Below are positions 18,051 to 50,021 of a DNA stretch of 64,000 bases, one piece after another. Source of the stretch: Psammoneis japonica (Eukaryota); assembly GCA_008632985.1 (NCBI GenBank), contig QPGO01000224.1, positions 1-64,000 of the forward strand, in the 5' to 3' direction. The first letter of the stretch is position 1; every line of letters begins with the position of its first letter. Below the pieces are notes generated by a model. It was not told the origin of the DNA and did not search any database. It was given only the letters and a program-made list of their open reading frames with translations. A program made the position numbers and the translations under genes.

Positions 18051-18143
18051 TGGATCTTGTGTTACAATTACTGGAACGCACCTGGTCAAACTATGACAGC
18101 AGCTTGATTCGGATCGGGCCGGTGAATGTTCCTGTGACACACC

Positions 18144-29122: not shown

Positions 29123-30590
29123 CTCAGTTTGTTGGTTTCACCCATTTGGGGATTCCCCAAAATGGCAAGGGCAAGGGGGAACTGCCTTGCCCTTTTGGAG
29201 AGCACCCGGGAAATGAGGACAATTTGACGGGAAGGAATGGCTGAAAGGGGTCAGGGGAAGGAACAAAAAATGAGTGCAGGGGAAGGAACAAAAAATGAGT
29301 GCAGTGCGGCAGTTCCTGTCTCATTTCAATTAGAATCTTTTGAAAATGACCCGCGACACAAAACGCACAAAACAGCCAAGGGCGCCTGCAGAATCTGCAC
29401 ATGTTTGCACCGAAACTGTGATGTTCACACAATTTGTGCAAAAATGGACTTGACTCCTGTCGGGTCAAGCCCATTTTTGCAAGTGTGTGGAAGAAAAATG
29501 GGCTTGATCAGAAAGGAGTAAAGTGCATTTTTTGCAAAGTCAAAATTCACTGAGGACAGACAGACAGACTTTTCTTGGCACTGCTCTGCACAATTTCTAC
29601 GTGATGACTCTGCAGCACGAAAGATTGCTGTTGACATGGGCGTGTGCACTTTTTGTCACATTGTCCAGCCAGCCAGCCATGGTCTGCTGCCAATGACCAT
29701 GACGGATGCATCGACAAATCGACACAAAGCGGCCCCTTGTGGCAGAGCAAGGGAAGAATGAATTTTGCCATTGGACCACACATGTCAACATTGCTCGCGC
29801 GCGGGCTCCATTTTTGCCTTGGCCTTTGCTCCAGAGCCGTTGTGGTTTGCATCATTTGTGACCACATGACACAAGAAGAAAAAACGACACACTGCATTCT
29901 GCACATGAGACAGGTCAAAGGGAAGAACAAACATTGTCAATCAATCCACCACATTTTTGTCAACCATGTGTGGCTCCACTTTTGCCTTGTCCTTCACACT
30001 GGATGCCTCATGGCTTGCCTTTTTGAATGCATGGCAAAAGAGTGATCTGAATGACCCCCTTCATTCTGCACACAAGAGGTGTGAATTGGAAGAATGATTG
30101 TGGCTGTTCAATCCGCCATGTTGTCATTGTCAGCTGTGCGCATGGTTCTGCTTTTGCCTTGGCCTTCACTGTGTGCCTTCTGGCTTGCATTTGTGGCTGC
30201 ATGACAAAAGAAAAACTGACGACTGATGACTCAATTGTGCTGGCATTTTGCACATGTGCAACCACATTTCACACTGTGTTTCATGTTGCAGATCCTGTTC
30301 AATTGACATTGTCGAATGCATCGAACAGTGTCATGATTGATGAACAACAGCTGTCACAAATGGGGCATGAACGCGGCATGGCGTGTTGCCCATTTTTGTT
30401 GTGGCTGGTCAATTGTCTGGCTCCTGTGTCCTGGCACGTAGAAGGTGCAGAAATGTGTGGGAGGGAAGCGCGTGGGGAATTCCCAATGTACAATTTTTTG
30501 TTCATCTGTGAAGTGTGCATGTGACGAAGCGCAGCTCATGGCGACTCCCCAGGAAATCATGCTTTCCATGGAAAATTGTGGCGACAAGCC
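29123..30590 (+). mobile_element. Dispersed repeat family B, copy 1 (extra segment about 29300-29670; 3' end truncated)
   Basis: Colinear with 48371-49542: ttggtttcacccatttggg.ttccccaaaatgg, gacacaaagcggccccttgtggcagagca, gaaggtgcagaaatgtgtg. Confidence 0.85.
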
Positions 30591-30745
30591 CTTCAGGGGG
30601 CACTGACCACTGCAAAGAGCAGGGTGGGCAGACCATGCAGGCCCTGCTTTTGATGCGGCTGAAAACAGAAGAGCAACAAGTCATCAAATGACAGAGAGTC
30701 ATTTGACACATCACAAGGGCAGTTTTGCAAGCTCCTGACCCCATC

Positions 30746-31130
30746 ACGGTTCCAGTCCTAGGTGGGACTTTTTGTGACATTTGCCCCGTAGAATTCTACG
30801 TGCGAGCTCTGTAGTTCGTACTCTGGTTAATGGATATATTTATCTTCGACATAAAAAACGGCCAAGCTTGTAGTACATCTATCCCTGTTCGTACTCGAAG
30901 TTTTGGATAATGCGCCTGCCCTACGCCGTTCTTAAGACACTCGAGAATGGCGTAGAAGAAAAAAATATTAAAAGTTGTTCAATGGATAGCCTGATAATTG
31001 TGCTATAAAATCATACAAAATTTCGCCAAAATCACGTAGAAATGTACGTCCGTGACATACGACGCGATTCAAAAAACCATCGATGTCACAGTTCAGTAGT
31101 GCGAGGTCCCACCTAGACCTGGAACGCGTC
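30746..31130 (+). mobile_element. MITE family A, copy 1 (TpA intact)
   Basis: TIRs gttccagtcctaggtgggac / gtcccacctagacctggaac; colinear with 35497-35884. Left end altered and no TSD found. Confidence 0.9.
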
Positions 31131-34100
31131 GGAAACTGCCCCATTGCATTTGGTGTGCTCGCATGTTGCACAATTTGTGCGGGTCACTTCCTTGTTCAAT
31201 GCTCGTCATTCATCAATTTTTGTGCTTTGTGCATGCTCAATGGTCAAATCATCCCCTCATTTTCCCCCCTTTTCTGTGATGACCATGAAAAGATTGCCAA
31301 AAAGAGCAGATGATGGACAAATCCTTGTTGTTGTTGAGGCAGACTGCAGCTGTTGCAGGAATTGAACAGAAAGGCACCTTGCAACCCCTCTTCAAAATGC
31401 TGAGTCATCGACCAGTCTACGTTGTTTTCATTTGTGGGTGCAGCTCCATTTTCAGCTGACTCTCCAATTTTCGTTTGTGTCTCTGAGCAACATCAGCTCA
31501 ACTCCTGTGTTGTTGCACTCACCGTCTCCATGTTCAGGACTGTCCAAGTCCATTGGGAGAGATGATGCTGCAATTGACCTTCTGCCTGCATCAAAAAAGC
31601 AATCTGAAATCTTTGTCGGACACGTGCAAGAAGCACAGAGTCAACAAGCAGGACACTTGAGAAGGCCAAGAGCAAGCAGACACGTGCAGAGGCAACATTG
31701 ACAAACATGGACAAAAAAGACAAAAGAAATGTGCACAAAAGGAAAAGGATGTTAACCTCGTGTCCAACTCAGATCATTCTTCTCCAATGACATTTTCTTT
31801 GGGGAATGACATTTTCTTTGGAGAACTTGAATCTGACAGCTCCGGCCAGCTGTGGGGTGGAGAAATGCTTTTTCCACAAAAAGGGTGACAATCCCCGGTT
31901 TGGTCATTTGGTCATGCAGCAACAGCTAAACTTCTTTTGTTGCAAGCAGAGAAAAAGCTTGGGATCTTGCAGGAATGGTTGAAAAGGAGCACTTGTTGTC
32001 CACTCTGTTTGGTCCAGTTCAGTCTGTGCATCCAAGCCAGAACAATGCACCCGAGATGAACAAAGTTCAAATGAGAGAGTCCCAACAGGAAATGATCAAG
32101 GAAGGCTGCTGTGCCAAAGGAATGGCTGCCGTGTGCAGAGCAAAAATGGCTCCTCAACTGTCGCTGCTCCTCAGCTGCACTCCCAACAAATGCAGACATG
32201 CAAAGGGGCATTTGCGCAAAATTGTCACTGCGTCAAGCGACAGCGAATCCTTTCTTCATAATTTTGGGCATGAGATGAACAAAACCATGGAACACACCCA
32301 GGACACAAGTTGCCTTGTGTGGGACTTTCAAGTGTTGGTTGACAGCATGGGAAAACTTTGGCACATTGATGCCAACTGGTGATGTGTTTTCATCCCAGGT
32401 GAGAAACTTATGGACACATCACAAGGTTTTCTGCGTGTTTCTACATGAGACGTACATTTAGCACCAAAAATCTTAGTAAAAAACGAGCTCCATGACAGCA
32501 AAAACATGTTTTTCCATGTCTCGAACCACAAACCACAATTCGCGCAAACCGAAAATGGCACCATGCCGTCGCCATGAACTCGTCCATTCTTGCACCAACG
32601 GATGTTGTGACTGAGAAGGTGAGAATGCCGAGACAGGTCAATGAGACAATGCTCAATGCGATGATGTGGTTGAAAATTTGATCTTTGTTTTTTGTTGTGC
32701 CTTGTGGATGGCCTTTTGACTCATGATGTTTTTGATGCCTCTTTCTCTCTTCCTCAGCTTGCGAAGTGGGATTCTCATCAACGCGCTGCTCCATCTGCTT
32801 GACACCGGATGCTGACAATGAAGAATGTTTCTATGACACGTTGCTGTGATTCTCACAATGCATCGTCCGCACTTTGAGTCGTTGTGGACAACGCTTTTGG
32901 GTCGCGCGACAACATCAGATTTCGCTGCCGACAAGAGAATCGTCATGTGTTCGGTTTTGAGGGTGTGTGAGGATAAAGAATCTCAGATGCAAGTGTGACA
33001 GTTTCATCATTGTAAAGTGGAACAATGCCATTAGCGACATCTCAGTGTTGCAGCCATTTTATTTTATTCCAAGATAGAACTGGTCATTTTGAGTGGTGAA
33101 ATTTTGTCAATGTTTCATCTTTAACTCCACTTGGGCATGTCAAATCACATGATGACTGGACACACATTGAACTTTGACGCCACCATTTCAATCCTGTTGT
33201 TTTATTCACTCAAGCATCCCACACAGGTTGACAAATCAGTCGATCTTTGAAATGGCCGATCGCGCAAAAAAATCACGTGCGAAGTCAGTTCCCCCGATTT
33301 TTCTTGTGCAAATGACAGAGTTAGAACGCCGTTCTTTTTTGGCATGAGCTCTTTGTACAATGAACAATGCGTACATTCTTTCAAAGCAGTCAGATTCGGT
33401 GAAAGAAACAGTGGAACAGTCTCTCAAATGCACCAGAACAACAACAACGAGCAGACAGCTGTCAGTTTCACTCCAAAAAATGCCGCTTTCGAGACAGCGC
33501 TTTTCTTGCACGCACCCTTCAACCAATGAGAATAACGGCTGGCTTTTCAAAATAAACATGTCTGTGGAAAGAAGAAACGAAAAATTGGGGGAAAGTCCAG
33601 TCAGATTTGCTCGCACAAAAAGCACGGCGACGGAAAAGGGACAGACGAAACGTCTCACCTCCGCATGCGCGTTTCTCACCTGGGATGAAAACACATCTGG
33701 TGTTTTGAATGGAGTCCCAATGACAAAAGAAATTTTGTCAGAATCAACAAGCGGTGACACCAAGAAGAGCGTTGTGATCAGGCAAAGAAAACATTTCTCA
33801 GTTGTGTCAAAATGGCTGAGCAGATTGTGGCAAACAATGCTGCAACAAAGACTTGGCGCAGCATTCTTCCTGGTCACGTGCAGCTGTTGGAAGAGTCCCT
33901 TGTTGCACATGCAATTTTCTCCCAGAAGTGACATGGAGGCCACCACTGCACCAGAAATGTCATTGAGGCAGCCACTGCATGTGCCCAAACCACAAAGCAG
34001 CTGGTCAAAACGAGCAGATGTTGTCATCTGTCACACACAGTTTGAAGCCCCCTGGCTTTCTTCACAGCCCGTTAACCTCCACAGTGCAAGTTCTGTTTTA

Positions 34101-35496
34101 AACGACTGGCAATGGTCTGGCTGGTTAGAGCACCAAAGGTGTGGCCACTGCACCATGTGCTTTGCACACAGCTCACACCTCCGATGATCAGCTTCACTCT
34201 CCCAAATCAGTTTGCTCAATCTTCACAGTGTCTTTCCAAAATTCTAGATCAATGACGAGCAACTTCTTTGTTCCATTGTCTTCATCTGCAACAATGCAGT
34301 TGCAACCATGAGAACAATCAAGAGGTTGGAAGTTGTGGTCACTCCACAGCTTGTCAATCACAGTGCCAAAGTGCCCATCAAACTCTTCCTCTTCGGGACA
34401 CCTCCCCTTCTGCAGACCAAGGAACCTGACCATGCCAGATGGTGACTGCGCAATGAATTTTGGAGTGGGGACAAGCTCACCCCATGCCTTTCTCAGCTGC
34501 ACGCATGCCTTGACCTCATTCTCATGACTTTCAAAATTCTTCGATGGATCAAACTGCTTTGCCGCAACCTTCTCTTCACCACAGCCACTCTCAAAGACGT
34601 CTCCGTTCCTTCTGACCCCCAACAACCTGCCAATCCTCAAAGTTCAAAAATCAACTGGACATGCAAATTGGTCTTCAAAAGAAAACAAATCAAAGAAGGA
34701 GCAGTCTGGCGGGGTGAGTGGGAGTGACGTGATGTTCCCTTCCTCATCCTCAGCAGACCTCGACTGAACCAACTGAGGCAGTGATGACACCAAAGTCAAC
34801 TGGCTGCCTTCATTCTTCATGCGGCACTCAGGAGATTTGTGTCTTGGTTTCTTGGACACAGGGCTAGATCCACTGCTCTTGTCACTTCGGCTTCCTCCAG
34901 ATGGTTCATGGTCACTGCTTCCATCACCACCAGAAGAGTCATCATCGTTGGGATGATGTCCAGTTTGCTCTTGATCTTCAACCACTGACTCCGACATGTC
35001 AGCTTCACAAATCGGGGTCTCCAGAAGCCAACTGATGCCAGTGCAGGGAGATGTTTCAAGGTTGTGATTTCCATTGGTCGGTGCTGGACTTTTGTTGGTG
35101 AGACGAATCACACACGCCCAAGCATGAAGAAAGTCTTTCTGACCAGCAATGCACGCGTCAGCAATTTCCACCCCGTGAACTTCTCTGCCTGGTCCATCAA
35201 GGTGGATGAAGTGCACTTTTGAAGCACAAAAAAGAGCTCCGCATCAAACAACATTGTCGACCATGTGTGCAAATTCCTGGGCAAGCGGGTGGCAGATTTG
35301 AGACACCAGTTCTTGGATGCTCTTTTTCCCTTTTTGTTGCTTGCTTCTTGACTGCCTCCTCACAACACTGCTTCAACACGTCAGATTTGTTTGGAAGCAA
35401 CACATTGTGCAACGTCTTTGCTTCAAAAACTGCTGTTGTCTGAGCTTGGTCAGGGCCATTTCCTGTCAGTTTCATGTGACAGGCTTTGTCAGGCCT

Positions 35497-35884
35497 GACG
35501 GGTTCCAGCCCCAGGTGGGACTTTTTGTGACATTTGCCCCGTAGAATTCTACGTGCGAGCTCTGCAGTTCGCTCTCTGGTCAATGGACACATTTGTCTTC
35601 GACATAAAACAAACAGCCAAGTTTGCAGCACACACATCTCTGTTCGTACTCAAAGTTTTGGACAATGCGCCTGTCCCACGCCATTCTTAAGACACTCGAG
35701 AATGGCGTAGAAGAAAAAAACATTAAAAGTTGTTGAATGGATCGCCTGATGATTGCACTATAAAATGATGCAAAATTTGCCAAAATCACGTAGAAATGTA
35801 CGTGCGCGACATGCGATGCGATTCAAAAAACCATCGATGTCACAGTTCAGCAGTGCGAGGTCCCACCTAGACCTGGAACGCATT
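35497..35884 (+). mobile_element. MITE family A, copy 2; 4-bp TSD GCCT
   Basis: gcct|gacgggttccag...ctggaacgcatt|gcct. Confidence 0.92.
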
Positions 35885-36386
35885 GCCTTCCCATTGTTGG
35901 ACAGCGGTCCCATTCTTCAGAATCCACTTGGAAGGGCAGACACATGAGACCAGCTTCACAAAACGGCTCAAACACAAACGCATTGAGGAAGCTTTGCTCC
36001 ATGGTTTCGTTCATTGGCAACATCTTGCTGATGACGGTTGTTGCATGCAATGGCACAGTCATTGGCAGTGGAAGCCCGGTCATGTCGAACTTCTCTTTGA
36101 AAAGATTCGTGAAATCTTCCCACTTTTCAATGGTCGGCAGATGGCATTGCTTGCTTCGTTGTTCGTTGAACTTGCTTTGTTGACTTGTTGTTGTGCCATC
36201 AGCATTGCACATTGGTGGCAAAATGGTTGATGATGCCATCCCTTCTTGATCATGACATTGGAACGCACGCGCATCATGCTGCACAAAAACTTCGTGGCAC
36301 TTTCCAACAAATTCTCTACGGGCTCGGTTGAAGTCTTTTCTTGCCCTCATCTCCTCCGGTGTCAGAGAGCATTCTTTTTGTTTGAC

Positions 36387-36662
36387 TGATGGAAATTGAA
36401 GGCAAATGGCAAGAATTCAAACAACAACTCCTTGCTGCTGTCTAAATGGCAGATGAGTCTCCGCTCAGAGACCGTTGCAGGAGCCAAAAGACTTGCAAGT
36501 TGGCATGGTCCGGCTGCTGTCATTGTTCTTGTGAGCCTTGTGGCTCGAAAGCAAACTGCATCGCGCGCGAACACGCGGAACTAAAGCACACAAAACTGTG
36601 CGCGGCAAACTAAACAGCGCGCAACATTTCGCGCGCACTTGAATCCTGTTCAAATCCTGTCA
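36387..36662 (-). repeat. 3' LTR (276 bp)
   Basis: Aligns without gaps to 43218-43493. Confidence 0.97.
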
Positions 36663-39600
36663 CTCCCCAGTTTGCTTGAGGAGTCACAGAAACAGATTCG
36701 ACTTTGGATGAAATGAAGTTCCAGAACATGAGGGGGCGGAGAAGGTCCCAGATTTGGGAGTGACCACAATGCTTGCTGAGGATGTCAGCAGGGTTGCGGG
36801 AGCCTTCGATGAAGTGGAGCTCAAGGCAACCAGAGGCAATTGCCTCACGCACACGGTGGAATGACAGTGCGGTGTGTCGCTTGTGTAACTTGGAGTGCGG
36901 GATGGTGGCACCATCTACAACCGACTTGTTGTCACCGAACATGCAACTGACATTGCGGATCGGGACGCCAAGGTGGCGCAGGGTGATGCGCAGGTCAACA
37001 ATCTGCTCGACACAAGTCCTTGCGGCAACAAATTCAGACCCGCAGGTCGCAGTCTCCACGGTGGCTTGCTTCTTAGAGAACCAATCAGCCGGGAATTTGT
37101 TGAGGAAGTGGAGCATTCCCATGACAGAGCGTCCGGTGAGCATGCAATGGTGCAGGTTTGCATCGACATAGTGGGTGGCAGTGACGAACTTGCCAAGGGG
37201 CGGTGGAGCGTCCTTCGGGATCATCTCTTCTGCTTCGCCGCACACGGAATGCATCCATTCACAGGCCGGAGCAGGGAGATCCGAACAGTCGGGCTCTTCC
37301 GTGCGAACGCAGAGAGCACCGTGTCGCATCTTGGAGAGGTGCCCACAGACGCGTTTGGCACGATCCAAGTGGCCTTGATGGGGCACAGCTCGGAAGCTAG
37401 AGAGTGACATGACGGCTGTGGCAATGTCAATTCGACCAAGGGACACTGCCCATTGGAGTGAACCAACAAGAGACTGGAACTTGTGAATGCCATCGGGTCC
37501 CAGCAGTTCGGAAGTGTCCAGTTCGGGGTGGTCACCCTTCTCCAGAGGTGACAGGGAGTTGGTGGCAGGTTTCTCCCCAAACAGTCGGGCACAGCTGTCG
37601 ACCATGCGCTCGATGTACTTGCACGGAGACAGGCACAAGGTTCCGTCGGGATCCCGGGAAAAGTCGCAACCCAGATGGAACTCAATGGGTCCCGTGCCCT
37701 TGAGCTTGAACTTGCACTTTTCCGTGAGAGCATCGACAAAAGATTGAGGGTCCTTCATGGCAATGGCGAGGTCATCCACATAAACGGCAATGCATTCACA
37801 GTGGTCGCTGTTCCTGCGCATCCAAATGTCGGGTTCGGCGCGGCAGGGGAAGAAGCCTTCAGCTCGCAGGCAGTCGGCAAAGCGCTCGTGCCAGCGGAGA
37901 CCAGAGCTGCGCAGTCCATGCAGGGCCTTGTGGATGACAAGGATGTGTCCTTCGAGTTTGCCAAATTCGGGTCCGGCCACAATGTAAAGCTTGTCCTTGG
38001 TGGTGGCTTCAAGGCAGGCATTGCCAATGTCGGTGGCCCATGTCTCCAACTCGTTGAGTTCGGCCAGGAAAATCATCAGCCGAAGGCCACGGAGGGAGAC
38101 TGCTCCGGAGTGGACACTGTCGACAGGTACGTCTGTGAGGTGCCCGTCGGCTACGAGTCGTGCCTTGTGGCGACCGTCGTGTTTCACGTCGCACACTGGG
38201 TGCACTCGGATCTTCTTGTGTCCCGCAGGAGGAGTGGAAGACTCGAAGGGCCCGCAGTCATGGAAGACTTCGCATTCGTCGAGTTGGTCCATCTCGAGAT
38301 TAGTTGCATCTCCCCATTTGCGGTTGCCGTTGCGTTCGTCTGGTGACATGGCGTGTTTGCAGTTCCGGGGAACTTCGCACCTGCACTTGCAGCGAGGTGC
38401 AGTGCGGAAGGAGCGAAGCTTGGCTTGGTTGGCCATGCGAAACAGCTTCTTTTGGCGCCTCGCGATGGTGCGGAACCGCTTCCAGCCATCCGTGTCGAGG
38501 AGTCCGTTCTCTCGTGCATGGATGGCGCAGGTGACGGGGTCGTCCTTGGCGATGATGGCAAGAGGCTCGGACGTGATCTCCCCACTTTCCCATTCAAGCA
38601 TGATGTTGTAGCTTGAGCCTTTCCAGGTTGGGTCGTGAGGCTTCAGAGGTCCTTCGTGTGACACGATGCGTCGAAATTTCCAAGTGGCAGTGTCTTCGTC
38701 TTCTTGCTCAATGTGATTCATGATGTCATTGTGGGCAAGGACTTCCTCGCATTCGTCGTTGTTGACAGAGCAGACGAACTTAGTGAGCTTGGGGTTGCTG
38801 TTCACTTTCCATTCGTGGTCTTCGACGGCCTTGACGATGCGAGCTCTGTGGCGTTGTCCGTCCTCTTGTGGCTGCATGAGGAAGGTACGTCCAATGATGT
38901 CTTGCAGATCGAAAACTGGCATCTTGGGTGTCCTGATCTCCCCATCAGGAGAATCGACGGGGTTGTCGTCATGGCGAGATTTGATGATGGGTTCAGGTGG
39001 CTCCCCATCAGGAGGATCAAGACGCAGGTTTCGAACGGCAGGATCGGTGGTAGCGGAGCGGACGTTGGACCGGCAGAGGATCTTCTGAGTCTCGTCAGAG
39101 AGAATCTTGAAGGTCATCTGGTGGCCGACGTGCTCAGCAATGCCAACGAAGCGTCCACACAACTCACGGGATTCGGACGGCCAATCGGAGTCATCGAGGT
39201 GGAAGCACACGGGTTCCCACCAGTGAAAGCGAAGCAATGGGCTGATGTCCGGGGTGGAGCCAGTGAGAGTCTCGAGGGGCGTGCGCCAGTGGAGACGTGG
39301 GGACGCTGTGTGGTTGAGTGTGAAGCACACATGCATGAGCGCCAGCAGCCATGTGTGGGCGGGCGAACCAAAACGATCCATGACAGTGTTCGCCATGCGC
39401 TTCACGGTCTGGTGTCGACGCTCGGCAAAATTTTGGTGTTGCTGGTGAGGCTCACTTTGCCAGCTGGAGATGAAGAGGGCCCACAGGATCCCAAGCACTT
39501 TGTTGCTGATCTCAACTTGAGCACGGTCGCCAATGAGTTTGGATGGGGCACCACGCTCACGGATCTGATCCTCGAGTGTGTTGACAAACTCTTTGTCCGT

Positions 39601-42278
39601 CTTGGTGCCGCAGACGTCAGTGACGGTAGACTCGGTGCCAACAAACAGTTGGGCACTGGTGCAACCAGAGTCGACGGCCGGGGTGTCGGCATGAACGGTG
39701 TCAGTGGCGACAGGCTCGTTGCGGCGGTGCACATTAAGGGCGGGGTTGGGTGATTTGCAGGCCTTCCTAAGGTGTGCACCGGTGGGCATGCGGGCGCACT
39801 GCGTGGTGCAGTCAAAAGTGCGACGGACCGCATCAGTGGGCAGGAAGCCAAAGCAAGGCCGAAGAGACTTGAAGGGCGGGTCCTTGGGCTGTGCAGTGCG
39901 CTCCGGGGGCGGGACATCATCGTCCTTGGGGTCAATCGCATGTAGATGACACTCGTAGAACATGTCGTCGTTCGGAATGAGGTGATCATCGAGGGCGGAC
40001 GCGTGATCGGCAGACAAGGAAGTGGACATGATGGTCTCGTTGACAACGACACGATGACGGCAGTTGCCGCATTCGTCAAACAGGTTGGCAGTGGGATCGT
40101 CCTGCAGGTCAGAGATCGCGTCACACCACTGGTCGTCATCAGTGACAGAGTGATCGAGGACGGAAGGATCCCATGTGTCATCACCGGTGAGGATGACATG
40201 GGGCAGGGTGTCCCATTCGGCGTCAGTGTAAGGTCGCATGGCAACACAAGGCAGGCCGGCCTTGATGTCAATGGGGATGACACAGCCATCAGGAGCGGCA
40301 ATGCATTGCAAGCCGTTGGGCACCTTGACAGAGTGATCGTTGACATCCTGTTTGCACCATTCGAGCTGGCCGCAGGAATGGATGGTCTTGCCCTTGCCCG
40401 TGTGTGCGCACTGATGGAGGATGGCGATGACGGGACCACGCTGGGTCTCAATGACGGCACCAGCGGTGACAATGGGGATGTCCACCAATTGATGGTCGTC
40501 AATGCCCTGAACGTCGACTTGGCGAGAGGTGCGTGCAATGATGCGAACGTCGTCGCCAGCAATGCCGCCGTTGGCCCCACGATTGACTGGAGCGCCAGTG
40601 CGTGTGGAGCGATGAGCAGAGGCAGAGTGAATGACATTGTGGTTGTTGACGCGGTGGCAAGTGCGGCCGTTAAGTTCCATGTCATCGGCAGAAGCTGGCG
40701 GGGTAGAGGGAGCGGCGGATGGCCCCGGTCGACTGGCATTGGGGGCTTGGTTAGGAGACAACAGACGGTGCAGATCACCGGGTGGCAGGGGCTTGCGCTT
40801 GGTGAGGTGCGCCAGGATGGGATTGTCCGAAGTGGCACCCACATTTGGAGCGGAGTCACCAGAGTCAGAAGGAGTCGTGTTGGACAAGTTGACATCACCG
40901 TCACTCCCAAGGCGTTGGTCGTGAAGGTTGGCCGTAATGGACTCATGGCAGTTGCTGTGTCGCGGGTTACGGGGAGGCGGACGAGAATGCTCAAGGATGA
41001 TCGCCTTGGAGGAATGGGGCAACGAATCCCAAATCCGTTGGTGGTCGGGAGGGAGACGTTTCCATTGGTCACCGGTGAGGCTGGGACAACGGGTGCAGGC
41101 AGCATTGGCCTGAAGGACGTCAATGTCACTGTCAATGTCGTAGAACACATCGTCGGACGGTTCCTCGGAGCAGACGTCGTGTGCGTGTGTGGCGCGGCGG
41201 GGAGCTCGAGGTGTCGTCTTGGGTTGAAACGCACTGTCGCATTGGGCTGCCGCGGAGAGGAGCAAGCCACAGCATTGATCACATGTGAGGCTCTTGCCAC
41301 TCTGCGTGCGATGCTGATCAGCTTGGTTCTTGACAGCACGGAGTTCCTTGACAGGGTGCACGGCATTCTCGAGCATGACGCGCTTCTGTCCTTCAGAGAA
41401 GTGGTCACTGGCCGGGATGAGTGCCTCGCACTTGCGCAACTGATCTTGCCAATGAAGGATGAACCCGTGGGTCAGACCTTTCCAAGCACCATCACCCAGA
41501 CGTGTGGTGGTGAGGTGCGTTGGCAGGGTGGAGGACTCGACAGATGCACGGGTGGAGGCGAGCGCGCATTCAGACAAGGCGCGGCAGACGGTCTGTGCAT
41601 CAGAAGACTCCACATTTTCGCGGATGAGAGCCTTGCCCTTGTCGGTGAGAAGGATGTGTTCGAAGACGGCGAACATGTGCTTTTGCTGTTCAGCAAAGAG
41701 CAGTTTGTCTTCGGGGCTGGTCGGTTTGTACGACGAGTCTAGAATGCACTCGACGTCTTGGGCACGGGCTTGTGCCACAAGTGAGGTGTGCCAAGTGTGC
41801 CACTGCTTGTCGGATTTGAGAGCCGTGAAAGCAGTGGGATCCCGCTTGATGCCTCGCTTGAAGTCCCGCACCGGGTCGCGTGCCTTGGTCGGGTTGGTGA
41901 CATGCGGAGGTGCGAGGGGTGAGCTGCCGATGGACACAGAAGACATGTGGTCGGGGCTGAGGCGGTGGGCAAGGAACTCGTCATGCGTGAACAACGAGGA
42001 GTCATTGGCAACGTCAAGACCTTTGTGTGCTTTGACAATGCACAGACTGGCTAGAGCTGCTAACATGTTCTCACAACCACGGGCAAAGGGATCACATTAG
42101 TGCCGTTGTCGCACTCAAGCCAGTCGATTTGGGACGGTGTGAACGTGAACAGTTCTTGATGCGAGTCCGTGCCGTCTTGTGCCAAAGCCAAATGGAGAGG
42201 GCTCCCAGCACCTTGGGCAAGCACGGTTCCAACAACATGCTCGAAACCATCAGTTTGTTGCTGACGAGTGAGAACCAT
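36610..42278 (-). pseudogene. Copia gag-pol polyprotein, open for 1818 aa but missense-inactivated; frameshift near 42080
   Basis: RGANGG protease with the catalytic D read as N; integrase SEPHQQHQNFAER; RT HKARLV and YVDD; RNase H DNKSV and NPADILSK. Only 9 Tyr counted in 1818 aa. Confidence 0.95.
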
Positions 42279-43203
42279 GGCAGACAAAAGTGGTGTCAGG
42301 ACAAGCAATTCTTGTTGGGAAGCGAAGGCAGACTTGAAGCTTGGGTGAGAATGGACTTGACTTGAAATGGACTTGACTTGAAATCTTGATCTATCTTAAA
42401 ATCAGAAGTCGCCGGGCTTTGCTGTCCCGTTCGTTGTTGAGTGCTAAACTTCCCATCCGGTCCGCAGAGTTGTGCCGGCACGTCCGAACCCGCAGCTGGC
42501 GGCGCTTTGGGTTGCTCACGAGCGGAGTAGCGGGTTGTAAACCCCTGCAGGCAAGCTGACTAGAGGTGGACAAGACCCCCGAACCGTTCTCATTTTATGT
42601 TGGTTGGATTTCCCGATCAGGCTGGCCAGTTGACGCAGGCGTCAGGCGCTGTGGACGAACGAACAAACGCGGGAAAGCACCCTCGCCCCAACGCAGGCTG
42701 TGATCACGGCTGCTTGCTCTCACAGTTGTCCTCGTGGACCCAGTGGAACTGTAGAGCACCAGCAGTCCGGGGTAGATCAGGTGCAATGGACTCGGTGTGC
42801 TTGTAGAGTGGTGGCAAAACCGCAGTCCGAAGAGTGGGTACAGGTTCTTGGCCGTGAAGACATGCATGTGTGCACATGTCTTCAGCGACGAAGATCCTTG
42901 AATGTGCAGGGTTCTTGACCGTTAACCGATGAACAGGCATGTCAAGGGATGAGGATCAAGGATAGACTTGGATGTGACCGTTGATTGCATGTCTTCAGCG
43001 ATCAAAGGCAGCATAATCACTCCAGATATCCAGCGGTAAGGAGACTTGACGGTGACGTTAACTTCCTGCCGATGCCCTGGCATTGAATGCGCGTAGACTT
43101 GCCGATGTATGTAGAACATATACGGAGGTCCACGTAGAATTGAAATAGCGTCGTTGGTAAATCAACGACGACGATGGCGGTTGCTCAATGGGTTGACAAT
43201 GAG

Positions 43204-43217
43204 CAAGACTGTTAATC
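43204..43217 (-). promoter_or_regulatory. Putative primer-binding site complementary to the anticodon arm of tRNA-Asn(GUU)
   Basis: Sense strand GATTAACAGTCTTG abuts the 5' LTR. Its complement GA-CTGTTAA-TC is an Asn anticodon stem-loop. No TGG-type PBS is present. Confidence 0.6.
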
Positions 43218-43493
43218 TGACAGAAATTGAAGGCAAATGGCAAGAATTCAAACAACAACTCCTTGCTGCTGTCTAAACAGCAGATGAGTCTCCGCTCAGA
43301 GACCGTTGCAGGAGCCGAAAGACGTGCAAGTCGGCATGATCGGGCTGCTGTTGTCATTCTTGTGAGCCTTGTGGCTCGAAAGCAAACTACATCGTGCGCG
43401 AACGCACGGAACTAAAGCACACAAAACTGTGCGTGGCAAACTAAACAGCGTGCGACATTTTGCGCGCACCCAAATCCTGTTCAAATCCTGTCA
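43218..43493 (-). repeat. 5' LTR (276 bp)
   Basis: Aligns to 36387-36662. Confidence 0.97.
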
Positions 43494-43610
43494 TTGACGT
43501 TGAACCGGGTCACAAAAGCACTCCCCTGTGAAAGAACCAGCTCCTCAACTTTGTTCGCCATCTGCTCTGCAACATTTTCAGAGGCAATTTCAACGTTGTT
43601 TGCCATCATT

Positions 43611-45902
43611 GCAGGAAACGAGAATCCGACGTGTTCCAGCTCTGGGTGGGACCTCGTGCTGCTGAACTGTGACATGATCATTTTTTGTCATCCGTCGCAT
43701 GTTTTGCACGTGCATTTCTACGTGTTCCATTGTAAAATGTTGTTCCACACTGCCTGTTTTGCGAAGCCAAAGGCTTTCTGTTGTCTGCATTTGTGACAAT
43801 AAAAATGCGCTGGGCATGTTCTTCAATGTCTGAAGAACACACCCGGGTGTGTTGTAAAGAATGTGCTTCAAGTGTGGAGGAGGAGATGCGTTCGCAAAAT
43901 TGCCTCTTTTTCTGTTGGCAATCATTCACACATGCATTGCTTGACAATTTTACTGCGGAGCTCGCACGCAGAATTCTGCAGGCCCAATGTCACAAAAAGT
44001 CCCACCTGGGACTGGAACCCGTCATCCACGGAATCGCATGGAATGTGCGCTTTTTCTCCTCATTCTGTTTGTTTGTTCCGTAAAAAATGAGGCCTTTTTC
44101 GCACTCTGTTTTGGACTTTTCTAAGGAACATGCCCTCATGTTCCAGATGGAAGTGTCAGCAATCGGAGCACGATGGTCACATTCCGCTCCGATCACCAAG
44201 ACAAGTGCACTCCGTTTTTGTGCAGAACATGATCTTGAAACTGGAACGACCGCTTCATTCCGTGCACAGACTGAGGTCAACGGATTTTGTTTTCAACAAT
44301 GTGCCATTTGTTGGCACAGAGCATGTGTTGAGATGAAAAATTGCAATGAACATTGTCCACATTGGCCAATGTCACTGCTCTGTTGTTTGATGCTCTCTGT
44401 TCATCCCTCTGTGATGATTCAAGCGACCAGTGTCAAGAATGACGGTGAGATGTTTGATGCTGTAATGCTGCAAGACCGTGCATTGTCGTCATGGCATGTG
44501 TGTTGTTGTCGTCTTCGATCGTGGAAAGTGTCATGTGGGACACTCATGTCTTCATTTTTATTTTAGCTCGTTGTGCAGCAAAGAAGACAGTGCAACAATG
44601 ATGGCCAAAATGTTCAATTGACATTGGAGTGAGAATCCCAAAAGGATTGCACATTTTGCAATTGTTTTGACATTGCAACATGTTGTGAACAAATTGAGGA
44701 CTTTTAAAATTGACAATTCAAATCACACATGTGAAGCAATTGTGTCGAAAACAAAGAAGAAAACATTTGATGACCACGTGCTGATTTGTTTAAAAAAGTG
44801 CGTGGAAAGACGTCGTTGAATTCTACGTGACTTTGATTGCTCTGTAGAAGGTGCGACGATTTACACTGGAGGAGAGGATTCGCATCACAGCCACATCTTC
44901 TCGCACTTGCTTCTCGTTCGCTCTCATAAAAAACGCAACACAGCCAGTGGCAGAACGCATCTGAAGCAACAACGGCAAACAATGGGAAGAACAACAGGAG
45001 AGTGAGTGGTGTGATTTGTGACAATTACAGCACACACGATGGCAAGCCATCATGTGATTGTGCAGCACTTCAAAGGTCGCTTGTGCTCACATTTTCTTCT
45101 CTCTTTTTGCTGTTGGGGTTTGTTTCCAGAGTCCAGAGGGTTCTGGTTCCGAGTGTGGCTGCTCCACTGCTGAGAGAGTGGCACCGCATCATCAACCGCT
45201 CTAGTTTTTGGCAAAAGAGACGTCTGGACAGCTGCACCCATCAACGGCCCGCATGTGCAAGCTTCATTTTGCTTTTTCTGTCACATTGAACGCATTGCTC
45301 ACTTTCAACTTTGTCACATGTTGCTCATGTTTGGGAAAGGTTGAAGTCCCCTTGTCATCTGTTGGGCACCCAAGATGATCAAAAGAAGGAATGCATCATT
45401 CTGAGATTCGGCTGAGTGGTGCAGCAAAGCGATCGGTCATGCAAATGCAGGCAGAGCACCAGTGTGGGCGGAGCAGGAGTTCTCACTGTGCAGTGGAAAT
45501 GCAGCAGCACAACAATCCCATTTTAGAATTTCAGTTGATTCCGCAACGTGTTCCGCACCACAAGCTCTGGAGATGACATGCCACATTCCAACCACAACAC
45601 GGAAAGTGAAGCTGTTGCATTCCGTGTCATTGGTCGAGCGAGAGGAATCCACAAACGGAGTGCAGCAAAAGGAACAGCAAATGGAATTTAAAACAAATGG
45701 CCTCTTTCTAACAAACAAAATGGTGAAACGCAACATGCAAATTGCGTCTTGGGTGCGGAATGAGCACACACGTTGGAATGTGACACGGATTTTGATGAGG
45801 CTTTTTTTGTTTTGCACCGTGTCACTCACACTCCATTTTGAGGCTTTTCGTGACGGAGTCGCACACACATTCCGTGCGATTCCGTGGATTCTCATTTCCT
45901 GC
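43611..45902. mobile_element. Non-autonomous TIR element (family C) with about 40-bp TIRs; left TIR interrupted by MITE A copy 3
   Basis: gcaggaaacgagaatcc[MITE]acggaatcgcatggaatgtg matches the reverse complement of 45861-45902 (gcaggaaatgagaatccacggaatcgcacggaatgtg). atcattg occurs at both sides, offset by about 8 bp on the right. Confidence 0.75.
43628..44023 (-). mobile_element. MITE family A, copy 3 (inverted, diverged interior); TSD ATCC
   Basis: atcc|gacgtgttccag...gtcccacctgggactggaacccgtc|atcc. Confidence 0.9.
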
Positions 45903-48370
45903 GCACCTTGATCATTGAAACAATGTTCAGCAGTGTGTGTGATGCGATGCTGCTGCTCTCTCTCTCTCTCTCTCTCTCTAGCTGCTCCACCTGCCATTCC
46001 TGGCTGGCCAGCAGAGAGCTCTGCCTCTGCCGGTTGCAGCTCTCTGGCTGGCAAGCAAGCAGTGGCTCTAGAAACTGGAGAGTGGAGGGCATCAGAGCGG
46101 TTTTCGATCGCACCAGTGGCGCCAGGCCATTGGACTTTGTGCCTTTTGCATTTCTCGGTTGATTTCTGGGTTGCTTGTCGATGCAGCACCCGGGTGTCCT
46201 GCATGCATCGGCATGCATGAAGTGCAGAGTGGGTCACACGAGTGACTCTCCACGTCCAATTTTCAACAAAATTCACTGCTGAACATTGCAGCTGCACTTT
46301 TAGAATGCTCACACTGTTGGTTTAGAAGGGCTTTGCACCCTTGAACTTGTTGCACATGCTCACCACTGACTGGTGTGGTGAGCCAGCCACTTGCTTCTGT
46401 CTCAAATCTCCGGACAAGATTTCCCACACACAGTGGCACTCATGATCAAGCTCAGCACCCAGACTGCAAAGGTGAGAACAACTGAATTTTCTGACAAAAG
46501 TGTCAACAATGTGAAGGTCATGTTTGTTTGCTGCACACATGGCATCTTTTGGGCATTTGATGCTTTTTAAGTGTGGCGCAGTTTTTGCCTCACTGTTTCT
46601 CCTGTGTCTCGCTGTTGCTCACAGGCCCACTCAGCACCCATTGCAGCACAGATGCCAAGGTGATTGCGGACCAGATGGTTGTTAAAAAATGTGTCTCAAG
46701 CCAAGGATGTGGAACAATCTGTTGAGATCAATGGCAGCAACCCTTGGTTGTGCCTTCCAAAATGGGGAGCGGCTTGTTTTCTTGTCAAGCTGGTGGAAGT
46801 GCAATGAGGTGCTGATTGTTCTTTTGGCCAGTGCAATTGTTTGTCACTGTTTGAACATAAAAAGTTTGTCACTGTTTGAACACAAAACTCACAACAGCAA
46901 TCTCAAATGGGTGCTTTGGAGTTTGTCAAAGTTGAAAGTGGTGCAAGTCGTTTGTCTGCTTTTCCCACAAGGAGCAAGAACGGTCTGCTGCACTCAGGAC
47001 ACCTGTGAGTGCTGCTTGCCATGCCACTGCAGATGCAGTTGGCATTGGCACAGTTGCTGGGGTTGCACACTGCAGCGCTCATGGTTGAGATGCCACATTG
47101 AGACAAGCAAAGCTTTCAGCATTTTTTTTGTTCCTGCTGTTGCACCCGACCTCACCAAGGGGACAGATGATTTAGATCACGCAAAAGTGGTGTGCAGGGC
47201 AGATTTTTTTGCTCTGGAAATCCTGCTGTGCCTTCCACCTGAGTGGAACAAACAGAGGATGTGTGGCAGAATTTTTGAAGAGGTGCCGCCCCTGTGTTGA
47301 CATTTCCACATGCAAGAATTCCACTTTCCAGCAGAAAAATGCCACTTGGGTGGAATTCTGGGTGCAATGGTGCAGTGCGGCAAGGAAGTGGTCAGCCCAA
47401 GACAAAGGAAGAAGATGAGGAAAAATCATTGCACACCAAGAATTGCGCAGAATCCTGCACAGAATGTGATGTCAGCTGCAGAGCTGTGCGTGCTTTTGGC
47501 ATGCAGCCATCAGCAACAAGCCTGCCAAAGCACCATCACACAGAACACAACTGACTGTCATGACAGCCATTGTCAACAATGGACAATGCGGGAAGCCAGA
47601 GAAAGCTCAAGGAGCTCCTTGTTGACAAGTGTGTCTGTGGAATGTCTCTTCTCCCAACTTGAGCCAGTTGTGAACTTGATTGGAGAGAACATGCTGGAAG
47701 AGAACATGGGAGCATGTTGTCTCTTTGTCCTCAAGAATGTGGTGCCCAATGGCATGTGACTCACTTGTTGAATGCAGTGTGTGTTGAAGTGTGACAGCAG
47801 CCACAGGTTCTGGACAAGTCATCAACCGCTGGCAGCAGATGAAAGAATCATGTCAGTTGCCACTTGCACAGCAAATCACAACAACCAATGTTTCCTCATC
47901 TGGTTTCCTTGTCTTTCCTCATCTGAGGAAAGTCAGGGTCAAATGAGGAATTCCCTGCAATCAAAAACCCTCTCTGGCTGGAGCAGAGCCAGAGCAGAGA
48001 AAGATGCTTCACAGCCTGCAGCAAGTGGTGCCACAAAAAAAAATCAAAGGCTGACATCATGACATTTTCTTGCTGGATGGCTTGAAATCTGCTCAATCTG
48101 CTTCTGCTCACCTGAAAACTGCTTGTTTGTCAGAAAATGAGCTCCCAGTGCAAGAAAATCTTGGTTGTCCTGCTGTGCGCCATCGCACGACTGAGACCCC
48201 ATGCAGAGCAGGTTGTTTGTGCTTTTCTTCATTCTTTGGAGTGATGTGCAGACCATGCTGAGATTGCCTGCAGAAAGCCAGTGGAATCGAGTAAAAAATC
48301 TGCTTCATTTTTCTCATAAAATGGCCAAAATCTACTTTGCTCACCACCCAACATGATGTCACTTTTCTTG

Positions 48371-49542
48371 CTTGGTCGGTTTGGTTTCACCCATTTGGGA
48401 TTCCCCAAAATGGCCAGTGCAAGGGGGAGTCACTTTACCCTTTTGGGGAAAACCCGGGAAATGAGGGCAATTTGGCAGGAAGGAATGCCTGAAAGAGCTC
48501 AGGGGAGGGGAACAAAAATGAGTGGAATGCAGCAATGTGCAGCAATTGTGGTTGGGCGTGTGTGCTTTTGTCCCCATGCAATCCATTGCTTGTGGGCAAT
48601 GACCATGACTGATTCATCAATGCATTGACACAAAGCGGCCCCTTGTGGCAGAGCAGGGCAAGAACAAACTTTGCCATTGAAACCCACACGTTGGCATTGC
48701 TTGTGTGTGCGGCCCCACACCTGCCTTGGCGCTTGCTCCAGAGCCCTTGCAGCTTGCACTTGTGACCACACGACACAAGAAGGGAAAAAATGATCCACTG
48801 CATTCTGCACATGAGATGGGCCAAAGGGAAGAACAAACATTGTCAATTAATCTGACACATTTTTGTCAGCGGTGTGAGGTTCTGCTTTTGTTTGCCTCAT
48901 GCCATGCCACAGACACCTCATGGCTTGCATTTGTGACTGCATGACAAAAGAGTGATTCAATGATCTGCTTCATTCTGCACATGAGATGTGTCAATTGGAA
49001 GAATGAGGGCAACTGTTCAATCTGCCACATTGTCCTTGTTGGCTGTGTGTGGTCCCCCCTTTGCCTTGGCCTTCACTGCATGCCTTGTGGCTTGCATCAG
49101 TGATCGCACGACAAAGAACAGCTGATGACTGATGATCAATTTTGCCAGCATGCTGTGCATGAGCAATCACATTTCATCTTGTGTTTCATGTTGTAGATCC
49201 CATTCAATCAACATCATCAAATGCATTGAATGGTGTCATGATTGAGCGACAACAGTTGTCACAAAAGGGGCCAAAAAACCATCATGGTGTGTTGCTTGGT
49301 TGTTGATTTCCTGTCTCACTTGCTGCACGTCCCAGCACACACAGAAGGTGCAGAAATGTGTGAGAGGGGAAGCATGGGGAACTCCCAATGTGTGAATCTT
49401 TGTTCATGCATTTTGAACACACACACACAACATGGCATTTTGCATGGTGATTCCCCGGGATTTCACGCTTCCCGTGGAAATTGTGGCAAAAGGTGGCAAT
49501 CCCGGGGAATTTTGGGGATTTCCACAGCAAAGCCAAACCAAG
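48371..49542 (+). mobile_element. Dispersed repeat family B, copy 2, with short TIRs and a possible 8-bp TSD
   Basis: Ends cttggt...accaag, flanked by ttttcttg / ttttcttc; colinear with 29123-30590. Confidence 0.75.
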
Positions 49543-50021
49543 TTTTCTTCCCCACAGTGCACACCCCTGTGCAAGGGCTGCCATGGGATGCAGGTGGGTG
49601 TGGTGTGTGATGACATCACCACATGCATTGAGCTGCATGTGCCCACATTTGCACTGACAATTGCATGTCACCAAGCAACAACTCCCATCCCATGGCACCC
49701 CCAAATCTCTGACCACCAAACACTGAGGGCAGCACTCAACCATTTTTCACTCATTCTCAAGCCACCCAAACAACGCTTGTCACATTGACTCCACCATGAC
49801 GACGTCTCCTCCTTTGTCACCAACAAATTGCAGGACTCCATTCTCGCTGAAGTTGTTGATGTTGACACACCAATGCAAGAGGTGAGACTGTTGCTCTGGC
49901 TGTTGTGCACCTCGCACATCCCAAATGAGAGTGCACAAACTCACACTGTCATTTTCATGCTCCACCACCTCCTCACCTCCCACAGGTGATGCCCCCCATG
50001 ACAACATTGCATCCTGAGTCA

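Follow-up and report, generated by a model that had tools for sequence, protein, structure and literature searches.

The stretch of DNA analysed here, referred to below as the window, comprises 64,000 nucleotides of the diatom Psammoneis japonica (contig QPGO01000224.1 of assembly GCA_008632985.1, positions 1 to 64,000). It contains a 7107-bp LTR retrotransposon on the minus strand (36387-43493), which is assigned to the Ty1/copia type by its RVT_2 polyprotein, its direct LTRs with TG..CA ends and its 5-bp target duplication. The borders agree with those of a first-pass annotation made from the sequence alone: the 3' LTR lies at 36387-36662 and the 5' LTR at 43218-43493 (276 bp each, minus strand), and the duplicated TTGAC occupies both flanks (36382-36386 and 43494-43498). 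The polyprotein ORF (36610-42096, minus strand) is still open over 1828 aa, with RVT_2 as its only Pfam domain (E 5.6e-23), and is overlapped by five further ORFs of 264-689 aa in other frames. Read depth over the element in run X1 is 60,000-136,000 compared with about 64 for unique DNA, which corresponds to about 1000-2000 copy-equivalents. Copia-like proteins related to this polyprotein by 60-70% identity number in the hundreds, the named ones being from Cylindrotheca, while a search of the public protein collection for members of the same family found none (top identity 70-71%).

The window is bimodal in its dinucleotide composition. Repeat domains (36 kb) have an observed/expected ratio (o/e) of TA of 0.08 and gene islands (24 kb) one of 0.54; this 7-fold depletion is accompanied by raised CA/TG. 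Eight TA-poor domains (TA o/e 0.04-0.13 each) hold 174 TA in total, compared with 909 in the gene islands (TA o/e 0.46-0.70), and their borders within the window are sharper than about 300 bp. TA and CG are the only depleted dinucleotides in these domains and CA/TG the only enriched ones; AA, AT, TT and the other AT-containing steps show no shift between TA-poor domains and gene islands (AA/TT o/e 1.26/1.22 and 1.20/1.18, respectively). Simple repeats were considered as a source of the CA/TG excess and rejected, as none of 12 short tandem-repeat entries is a (CA)n array. CpG decay is present in the same domains (CG o/e 0.13-0.5). GC content is 0.48 in the TA-poor domains other than copia, 0.47 in the gene islands and 0.56 in the copia element, which is above its surroundings.

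Outside the copia element, the TA-poor domains lie at the window edge (1-1500; TA o/e 0.06, CG 0.69, with only a sub-threshold DAGK_cat match), at 4001-11500 (TA 0.05, CG 0.13, TG 1.79, CA 1.98, its ORFs lacking any Pfam match above cut-off), within 28001-35500 (TA 0.06 over 28001-30500 and 0.11 over 31001-35500, separated by a TA-rich MITE copy, where depth varies between about 64, the single-copy level, and values above 20,000), at 43501-53000 (TA 0.07, CG 0.41), at 57001-59000 (TA 0.06, CG 0.22) and at 61501-63500 (TA 0.04, CG 0.21). The gene island at 11501-28000 (TA about 0.5, CG about 1.0) provides an internal contrast; it encodes a DEAH-box helicase (18925-21624, minus strand) and an F-box ORF, and includes a small TA-poor patch at 22501-23500. 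Pfam analysis of 80 ORFs from the TA-poor domains other than copia gave no match above curated cut-offs. Copia and the MITE family are the identified mobile elements, and the remaining TA-poor domains are repetitive by depth and unclassified.

The first-pass annotation had described TA as nearly absent from all repeat domains and normal in gene islands. This holds by o/e, with two local exceptions: the MITE copy at 30749-31125 and part of the copia leader at about 42750-43220. The leader, 1.1 kb long, separates the 5' LTR from the ORF, and this part of it (42750-43220, minus strand) keeps 19 TA, among them ATAT-type contexts that are lost elsewhere in an otherwise saturated element (overall TA o/e 0.19). 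It is also the highest depth bin, and the place where contigs of run X3 differ most from the window (26 of 368 letters).

Nine Tyr residues were counted in the polyprotein, the number previously given for an ORF of 1818 aa. At 0.49%, its Tyr content is far below the homologue median of 3.76% (minimum 2.86%), whereas Cys (3.66% versus 0.94%) and His (5.25% versus 3.56%) are elevated relative to the same reference, the 84 of 120 listed homologues that are full-length. In an alignment of 50 homologues, Tyr is shared by at least 80% of the proteins at 37 columns; the copia residue at these is Cys in 18, His in 12, Phe in 2 and Tyr in 5, while 650 of 709 other conserved columns (about 92%) are kept. 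Seven strings in which Cys or His appeared to replace a conserved Tyr had been quoted in the annotation, with the proviso, set beforehand, that relatives might natively carry Cys or His there. All seven are in the translation, and at six of them the consensus of 25 homologues has Tyr at the Cys/His position; for the seventh, proposed to derive from VHLVYDVK, the majority residue is Phe.

When substitutions were polarised by the homologues, the 91 changes at 746 conserved columns comprised 22 TA>TG, 16 TA>CA, eight CpG decay and six other AT>GC changes, and no other GC>AT transitions. TA>TG and TA>CA together account for 38 of the 91. The Cys and His outcomes (18:12) form no strand-coordinated runs (17 runs versus 15.4 expected), so both strands were hit, site by site. 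There was no clear pattern between the Cys/His outcome and the flanking base at the Tyr codons (n = 30).

Loss depends on the wider context of the dinucleotide. The copia ORF retains 32 TA compared with 273 expected from its relatives, but only two ATAN-type sites survive against 133.6 expected, versus 30 against 139.5 for the other contexts. Targets flanked as ATA/TAT are almost completely lost, and the ranking of contexts is the same when gene islands serve as the null. A trinucleotide mass balance of ATA loss against ACA gain is confounded by CpG decay. The two ATAN-class survivors are both conserved Tyr codons, one of them the Tyr of the reverse transcriptase YVDD motif (approximate Fisher P 0.007), a hint that selection operated for part of the process.

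The two LTRs were identical at integration and are now 91.3% identical. Their 24 differences include five TG/CA doublets, one TA/TG, nine CpG/TpG or CpA, two transversions and two further transitions, one of which adjoins a doublet. Double CpG hits would be expected to yield about 0.5 TG/CA doublets (P about 2e-4 for the five observed). As these doublets arose between LTRs that began identical, the TA change took place partly after insertion, on chromosomal DNA. Rough estimates from the LTR pair place per-site change at TA about ten times above that at CpG and more than 100 times above changes other than CpG decay. With the Phaeodactylum tricornutum mutation rate as calibration (PMC6604790), this amounts, again roughly, to at least 1e-7 per susceptible TA per generation.

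Three copies of a MITE-like element with 20-nt terminal inverted repeats, all on the plus strand, differ in how far they have changed: the copy at 30749-31125 is the least mutated (30 TA in about 400 bp), that at 35501-35881 is intermediate (12 TA) and that at 51498-51894 is heavily mutated (4 TA). Among sites with TA in the first copy that are changed in both others, eight are concordant and seven are discordant, reading CA in one copy and TG in the other. TA is the sole state from which each of the seven discordant sites can be reached in one step per copy, and it was therefore their ancestor. Since a MITE is a class II element, a mechanism tied to reverse transcription is excluded for this family. 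It is a high-copy family that still includes a TA-rich copy, and the partly mutated copies suggest slow accumulation.

Read evidence came from three runs (X1-X3) of one sample in one study, which is possibly the assembly's own source and for which the platform is not on record. A Logan contig of run X1 (depth 63.7) spans 26001-29161, crossing the border between gene island and TA-poor domain, with five differences, three of which are TA/TG, CG/CA and a TG/CA doublet. At single-copy depth there are four more run contigs, each of which agrees with a TA-poor stretch except for 0-2 differences. The first-pass annotation had called for confirmation in reads from two platforms; the run contigs do reproduce the TA-poor sequence, although as same-sample runs they do not amount to an independent platform. 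They also bear on dependence on duplication: most TA-poor DNA is multi-copy, yet the stretches at single-copy depth are equally TA-poor.

Contigs of run X3, a tiny run that assembles the commonest copies only, differ from the copia ORF by just 3.2%, where TA sites alone would give 2.6-4.4% if the copies had been saturated independently. Only four of the 12 visible differences are TA-type and none is a doublet. Because the commonest copies are so close to the copy in the window, most of the Tyr losses probably came with a template that had already been mutated, and the mutated element would have gone on multiplying. Metagenome contigs searched with a single-protein query gave no close relatives. 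An alignment query retrieved 62 loci (TA o/e 0.27-0.99 versus 0.19 for the copia element), none of them with the signature, although one of the two query patterns held Tyr and so disfavoured mutated copies. The Tyr-to-Cys/His pattern was found in four of 389 related public proteins (P0447, P0403, P0287 and P0497), which are singletons from ENA or JGI assemblies and whose outcomes differ from site to site.

Four independent tests of polarity, namely the protein homologues, the LTR-LTR doublets, the three-copy MITE comparison and the allelic differences between window and run contigs, support the earlier claim of a heritable A:T-to-G:C change at TpA, on either strand, confined to domains of repeats or silent chromatin. 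The comparisons record this signature with its polarity, on both strands, partly after insertion and, within the window, restricted to particular domains. We consider it very likely that these observations reflect a mutation process that acts on chromosomal double-stranded DNA, turns TpA into TpG or CpA, and is confined to repeat-rich domains.

Editing of RNA or cDNA during many cycles of retrotransposition, by ADAR/ADAT- or APOBEC-like enzymes, could in principle have been the main source of the changes, with chromosomal DNA untargeted. The element is indeed a retrotransposon, present in about 1000 or more copy-equivalents, and most of the TA losses in its ORF seem common to the majority of the family and older than the insertion. 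Such editing would not be expected to affect the strands about equally, and in 12 of the 30 Tyr losses the sense strand shows T>C. In addition, the MITE, the unclassified repeats and the flanks at single-copy depth bear the same signature, and the LTRs have acquired their doublets since integration. We therefore regard this explanation as very improbable. We give equally little credence to an adaptive avoidance of TA by the mobile elements themselves, for example as an escape from a nuclease, silencing factor or mutator that reads TA. The great abundance of a Tyr-poor family would fit such avoidance, as would the identity of the last ATAN-class sites in the ORF and the two to four conserved Tyr that now read Phe, which needs a transversion. 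Against this, conserved Tyr codons survive no better (5 of 37) than TA sites overall (32 of 273), and a polyprotein would be unlikely to tolerate Cys or His in place of 30 conserved Tyr. TA is also equally depleted in non-coding repeats and in DNA at single-copy depth, and the LTR and MITE comparisons show resident copies mutating.

A sequencing or assembly artefact, such as a modified base misread in heterochromatin or an error of polishing, is less probable still. The common origin of all the reads speaks for it, but a misread base in the palindromic TA should produce strand-discordant calls and a split k-mer graph, whereas a single contig crosses from the gene island into TA-poor DNA at constant depth. 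Moreover, the outcomes are site-specific, differing between LTRs and between copies, and the same protein signature occurs in the four unrelated public metagenome proteins. Least credible is GC-biased gene conversion among the many repeat copies, which could draw on the high copy number and on the elevated GC of copia, but would not limit change to TA while leaving AA, AT and TT as they are, would not leave the other TA-poor domains at gene-island GC, and would not reach stretches at single-copy depth.

The mutation process proposed here would be an A:T-to-G:C transition at TpA, on either strand of chromosomal double-stranded DNA, in repeat-rich and probably silent-chromatin domains, with TA flanked as ATA/TAT as the preferred target. 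It would outpace the CpG decay of the same LTRs roughly 10-fold and other changes more than 100-fold, and at a rate so far above background substitution TpA loss would saturate before an element otherwise decays. As no stop codon can result from TA-to-TG/CA changes, the copia ORF stays open while its Tyr codons (TAY) turn into Cys and His; TATA- and AATAAA-like signals would also be erased. The process is presumably enzymatic and may serve to silence mobile DNA. DNA adenine deamination is our leading candidate for its chemistry, albeit a tentative one. A TET/JBP-type oxidation of thymine, with the oxidised base then mispaired or repaired, is possible but has a weaker claim, and error-prone repair triggered by a lesion is more doubtful than either. 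5-Hydroxymethyluracil (5hmU) or base J may have a preference for TpA. Polymerase eta, which the first-pass annotation had offered as a candidate, is not favoured, as its WA-type mutagenesis fits poorly with AA/TT being undepleted in the TA-poor domains.

Several known systems share features with this process. RIP of ascomycete fungi is likewise a dinucleotide-specific transition hypermutation of repeats that leaves skewed gene-poor domains beside normal gene islands, but it runs in the opposite direction (C>T, mostly CpA>TpA, with TA enriched; PMC7296669, PMC2621366) and creates stop codons, which TA-to-TG/CA changes cannot. RIP also depends on homology and is premeiotic. The C:G>T:A change and TpA enrichment of RIP are not what is found here, where TA is depleted and the discordant MITE sites need a TA ancestor. 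Decay of 5-methylcytosine also yields TpG/CpA, in the same domains, with nine CpG-type differences between the LTRs, but has no means of removing TA. APOBEC3 and ADAR editing in animals comes close to the process proposed here, in that such deaminase-type hypermutation inactivates retroelements and its scar in the genome is context-specific. These enzymes act on cDNA or dsRNA before integration, on one strand (G>A, or sense A>G) and on retroelements only, whereas the changes seen here extend to both strands, to a MITE and to copies already resident in the chromosome. Within the SAR lineage, TET/JBP enzymes of dinoflagellates place 5hmU preferentially in repeats and silence transposons (PMC11572971). 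This is a repeat-directed thymine modification, and oxidised thymine could give T>C, but the available text of that study reports no mutational loss of TpA. In P. tricornutum, mutation accumulation followed the usual GC>AT bias, and TpA goes unmentioned in the available text (PMC6604790).

The closest parallel is a preprint dated 2026-04-14 by Mettrop et al. on the rhizarian Bigelowiella natans (bioRxiv 10.64898/2026.01.13.699255). Of 231 mutations that its mutation-accumulation lines gained in two viral inserts, 230 were A>G or T>C, AT>GC changes that Mettrop et al. assign to TpA and that arose at a rate of about 6e-7. Both cases involve TpA>TpG and TpA>CpA on both strands, restricted to certain regions, with TpA loss coupled to CpA and TpG gain, and the TpA-poor coding sequences of B. 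natans are enriched in reverse-transcriptase and DDE domains, in keeping with the mobile targets found here. The rates are also of the same order, 6e-7 there, orders of magnitude above background, and at least 1e-7 here. The systems differ in host (a stramenopile, the diatom, here) and in targets, which are giant-virus and virophage inserts in B. natans and an LTR retrotransposon, a MITE and unclassified repeats in P. japonica. Depletion reaches a TA o/e of 0.45 in the NCLDV region of B. natans and 0.05-0.1 here, near saturation and alongside CpG decay. An ATA/TAT preference is seen here, and the main text of the preprint gives no flanking context. New mutations were measured in living lines of B. 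natans, whereas in P. japonica the evidence is indirect, from LTR divergence and allelic TG/CA doublets. We infer that the process in the diatom is of the same kind as that measured directly in B. natans. The first-pass annotation had known of no such description in diatoms; our literature search likewise found no report of TpA hypermutation in diatoms, but the phenomenon itself is not new, the B. natans preprint being the only account retrieved.

A broader reading is possible but distinctly speculative: that stramenopiles and rhizarians share a dedicated enzymatic TpA editor of silent chromatin with an ATA/TAT core, inherited within SAR or repeatedly acquired. Such an editor would act as a slow, continuous defence, erasing Tyr codons, TATA boxes and AATAAA signals without introducing stops. 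Transposons would co-evolve with it, this copia family having multiplied in Tyr-poor form to about a thousand copies while keeping TA where it may be indispensable, at the YVDD Tyr and in the cis-acting leader.

The signature has practical consequences. Long open frames persist in hypermutated DNA, which matters for gene prediction, and LTR-based dating will make such elements appear far too old if TA and CG sites are left unmasked. In a search for the enzyme, genomes with and without the signature can be compared in their repertoires of deaminases, TET/JBP enzymes and repair polymerases, and a natural A:T>G:C editor of DNA with a defined context, if confirmed, would be of interest for base editing. 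If the pattern holds genome-wide, P. japonica would represent a second, distantly related algal lineage with TpA-specific hypermutation, here carried to saturation. It would also point to a new class of genome defence, in which transposons are inactivated by mutagenesis whose direction is the reverse of RIP and of the universal GC>AT bias.

A complete Ty1/copia-type LTR retrotransposon occupies 36387-43493 on the minus strand, with 276-bp LTRs of TG..CA form (36387-36662 and 43218-43493), an intact 5-bp target duplication (TTGAC) and a single ORF of 1828 aa (36610-42096, minus strand) that matches Pfam RVT_2 and whose named reverse transcriptase relatives come from Cylindrotheca. The first-pass annotation had remarked on the scarcity of Tyr in this polyprotein and on Cys or His at conserved Tyr positions, and both observations were confirmed. 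Tyr makes up 0.49% of the ORF product (9 residues); across the 84 listed homologues (of 120) that are full-length, its share has a median of 3.76% and never falls below 2.86%. The Cys and His contents of the product are correspondingly higher than in those 84 proteins. Alignment with 50 of the listed homologues gave 37 columns with Tyr in at least 80% of homologues, and 30 of these carry Cys (18) or His (12) in the polyprotein, the others being Phe (2) or Tyr (5), while 650 of the 709 remaining conserved columns are retained. Six of the seven motifs originally quoted as examples do have a consensus Tyr, but the seventh has Phe. At the DNA level, the ORF holds 32 TA dinucleotides versus 273 predicted from their density in 62 metagenomic relatives, and the observed/expected (o/e) TA ratio of the element is 0.19 versus 0.27-0.99 in those relatives. 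Nearly all conserved Tyr residues are retained in five of six relatives tested; the other, L047, retains 11 of 14. Five additional ORFs of 264-689 aa lie in other frames of the copia region (36889-41742, both strands), as TA>TG/CA changes make no stop codons and erase TAA and TAG. These frames are a trap for gene finders.

Across the window, eight domains totalling 36 kb contain 174 TA (o/e 0.04-0.13) and gene islands totalling 24 kb contain 909 (o/e 0.46-0.70), in line with the earlier report that TA is nearly absent from repeat domains and normal in islands, and the borders are sharper than ~300 bp. Only TA (0.08 versus 0.54 in islands) and CG (0.45 versus 0.94) are depleted among the 16 dinucleotides in TA-poor domains, only CA (1.76) and TG (1.65) are enriched, and AA, TT and AT are the same as in islands. 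Tandem repeats do not account for this pattern. The islands encode a DEAH-box helicase (18925-21624), most similar among named sequences to Nitzschia and Amphora transcripts (64-65% identity), an F-box protein (23657-24124), an LtrA-like membrane protein (54359-55471) and a fatty-acid desaturase (59024-60358). The affinities of the helicase and of the copia RT mark the genome as raphid-pennate-diatom-like, not that of Bigelowiella. Within TA-poor DNA (1-1500), a sub-threshold match to a diacylglycerol-kinase catalytic domain (671-1018, minus strand; 21.9 bits, cut-off 23.6) may be a hypermutated host-gene fragment, and a run of 27 G lies at 6124-6150 within a TA-poor domain.

Four independent sequence-based tests of polarity agree and point to change from TA to TG or CA, which supports the core proposal of the first-pass annotation that TpA is converted to TpG or CpA on either strand. 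One is the shortfall of TA in the ORF relative to the metagenomic relatives. At 746 conserved protein columns there are 91 substitutions: 22 are compatible with TA>TG, 16 with TA>CA and 8 with CpG decay, with six other AT>GC and no other GC>AT transitions. Transversions or multi-step differences account for the other 39, as expected for families that are 60-70% identical. A MITE-like family (~380 bp, 20-nt terminal inverted repeats, several hundred copy-equivalents) is represented by three copies (30749-31125, 35501-35881 and 51498-51894) and by fragments at 43625-43724 and 43952-44024. Loss is graded across the three copies (30, 12 and 4 TA), and the TA-rich copy is probably a young insertion, since it lies within a TA-poor domain. 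At sites with TA in copy 1 that changed in both other copies, eight outcomes are concordant and seven discordant (CA versus TG), and the latter can be explained in single steps only by a TA ancestor. The window and a contig of single-copy depth, assembled from sequencing run X1, differ five times in 3.1 kb; TA/TG, CG/CA and a TG/CA doublet are among the differences, a hint that the process operated after alleles or strains diverged. Differences of these kinds from run contigs of single or low-copy depth lie at 26737, 28507, 28992-28993 and 44863-44868.

TA survival depends on its neighbours, which indicates a preferred target of T-A-T/A-T-A. Using context frequencies in the relatives, two ATAN (equivalently NTAT) sites survive in the copia ORF versus 133.6 expected, compared with 30 versus 139.5 for all other contexts. 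The ranking is the same against gene islands, where survival is lowest for ATAT (0), ATAC (0.011), ATAG (0.055) and GTAC (0.076) and highest for CTAG (0.25), TTAA (0.36) and CTAA (0.385). The commonest hexamer around surviving TA in the low-TA domains is CGTAGA (reverse complement TCTACG; 11 of 174), for example at 35542, 35708, 35791, 39956, 41141, 43094 and 43135, a frequency to which its presence in the MITE contributes. A neighbouring CpG might protect TA. For ADAT and TadA the natural substrates are U-A-(C/G/A), and ADAR favours a 3' G; if so, the ATA/TAT preference has no obvious fit to these enzymes, which is a lead. Thymine oxidation is a possible rival chemistry to adenine deamination, given that transposons of dinoflagellates receive 5hmU from TET/JBP enzymes (PMC11572971).

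Three sequencing runs contain this sequence, all from one sample and one study, of unrecorded platform and possibly the assembly's own source. An X1 contig of depth 63.7 runs continuously from a gene island into TA-poor DNA (26001-29161), and four more (depth 58-70) show 0-2 differences from the TA-poor stretches they match. A modified base in palindromic TA, if misread discordantly between strands, would split contigs, so these intact single-sample contigs argue against such an artefact. Over 20 kb, contigs of the runs differ at 882 transition and 143 transversion places.

Summed depth over the copia region is 60,000-136,000 versus ~64 for unique DNA, or about 1000-2000 copy-equivalents. Contigs of X3, a very small run that assembles only the commonest copies, differ from the window copy at 102 letters in 3178 bp of the ORF (3.2%), where 2.6-4.4% is predicted from TA sites alone had both copies been saturated independently. 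Twelve of 30 differences in two X3 contigs were inspected: seven are CpG-type, four are TA in one copy versus CA/TG in the other, one is a transversion and none are doublets. This comparison suggests that most Tyr losses were probably inherited from an already mutated template, and the Tyr-poor element would have continued to multiply, with mobilisation in trans the simplest route. Survival of conserved Tyr codons (5 of 37) is no higher than that of TA overall (32 of 273), evidence against selection on the protein. The ORF retains just two ATAN-class sites (residues 1439 and 1643), and both are conserved Tyr codons, one being the Tyr of the RT YVDD box (approximate Fisher P 0.007), and the leader adjoining the 5' LTR (42750-43220) keeps 19 TA, including ATAT-type contexts wiped out elsewhere. 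Selection on cis-acting sequence and gene conversion are possibilities for these survivors. The leader is also where X3 departs most from the window (26 of 368 letters).

The changes strike chromosomal DNA already in place. The LTRs of one element are identical at integration, and the target duplication here is intact, yet the two LTRs differ at 24 of 277 positions, comprising five TG/CA doublets, one TA/TG, nine CpG/TpG or CpA differences, two transversions and two more transitions (one adjoining a doublet). Double CpG hits would give ~0.5 doublets (20 CpG sites, per-LTR CpG loss 0.225; Poisson probability of five, ~2e-4), indicating that the two LTRs lost TA independently at the doublet sites. 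Three TA are kept in both, all CTAAA. Both strands are affected site by site without strand-coordinated clusters: Tyr->Cys (sense-strand A>G) and Tyr->His (sense-strand T>C) outcomes in the ORF are interspersed at 18:12, in 17 runs versus 15.4 expected. A reverse-transcription-linked mechanism is excluded, since the signature is carried by the class II MITE, by repeats that defy classification (80 ORFs, none with an above-cut-off Pfam domain) and by single-copy-depth stretches (TA o/e 0.00-0.07). Two X1 contigs (depth 79) join 36381 to 43494, skipping 7112 bases with five shared letters. They represent the empty target site, which may mean that the sample is heterozygous or polymorphic for the insertion or, alternatively, that a paralogous site lacks it.

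Outside TA and CpG, the LTRs differ at 4 positions in 277 bp, which at the Phaeodactylum tricornutum mutation rate (4.77e-10 per site per generation, PMC6604790) roughly suggests an insertion age on the order of 1e7 generations. Near-saturation of susceptible TA sites since insertion would then require at least ~1e-7 mutations per site per generation, roughly 10-fold that of CpG in these LTRs and >100-fold background. The rate measured directly in Bigelowiella natans is ~6e-7 (bioRxiv 10.64898/2026.01.13.699255).

Of 389 distinct copia-like proteins obtained in database searches, four environmental-assembly singletons also have Tyr->Cys/His patterns. At their conserved Tyr columns, P0447 has 10 Cys, 4 His and no Tyr (of 16), P0403 has 5 Cys, 4 His and 3 Tyr (of 13), P0287 has 5 Cys, 3 His and 4 Tyr (of 13), and P0497 shows the pattern at 3 of 5, with site-by-site outcomes unlike those of the P. 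japonica polyprotein. The four are unrelated fragments, and in P0287 the YVDD box has become HVDD.

Our literature search found TpA hypermutation described only in the B. natans preprint (bioRxiv 10.64898/2026.01.13.699255) and nothing comparable for diatoms; P. tricornutum mutation accumulation has the usual GC>AT bias (PMC6604790). Of 231 mutations acquired by B. natans mutation-accumulation lines across an integrated giant-virus region and a virophage one, 230 were A>G or T>C, and only some lines carried them. The authors assign the AT>GC changes to TpA, describe 124 clusters of TpA-poor, CpA+TpG-rich windows and propose an ADAT2 homologue as candidate; the available text of the preprint makes no mention of diatoms or stramenopiles. 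The P. japonica case differs in its eukaryotic supergroup branch, in its saturated form, in its occurrence on transposons and in its extended ATA/TAT context, a preference absent from the preprint's main text. The TpA hypermutation signature in P. japonica is real and belongs with the phenomenon first reported in 2026.
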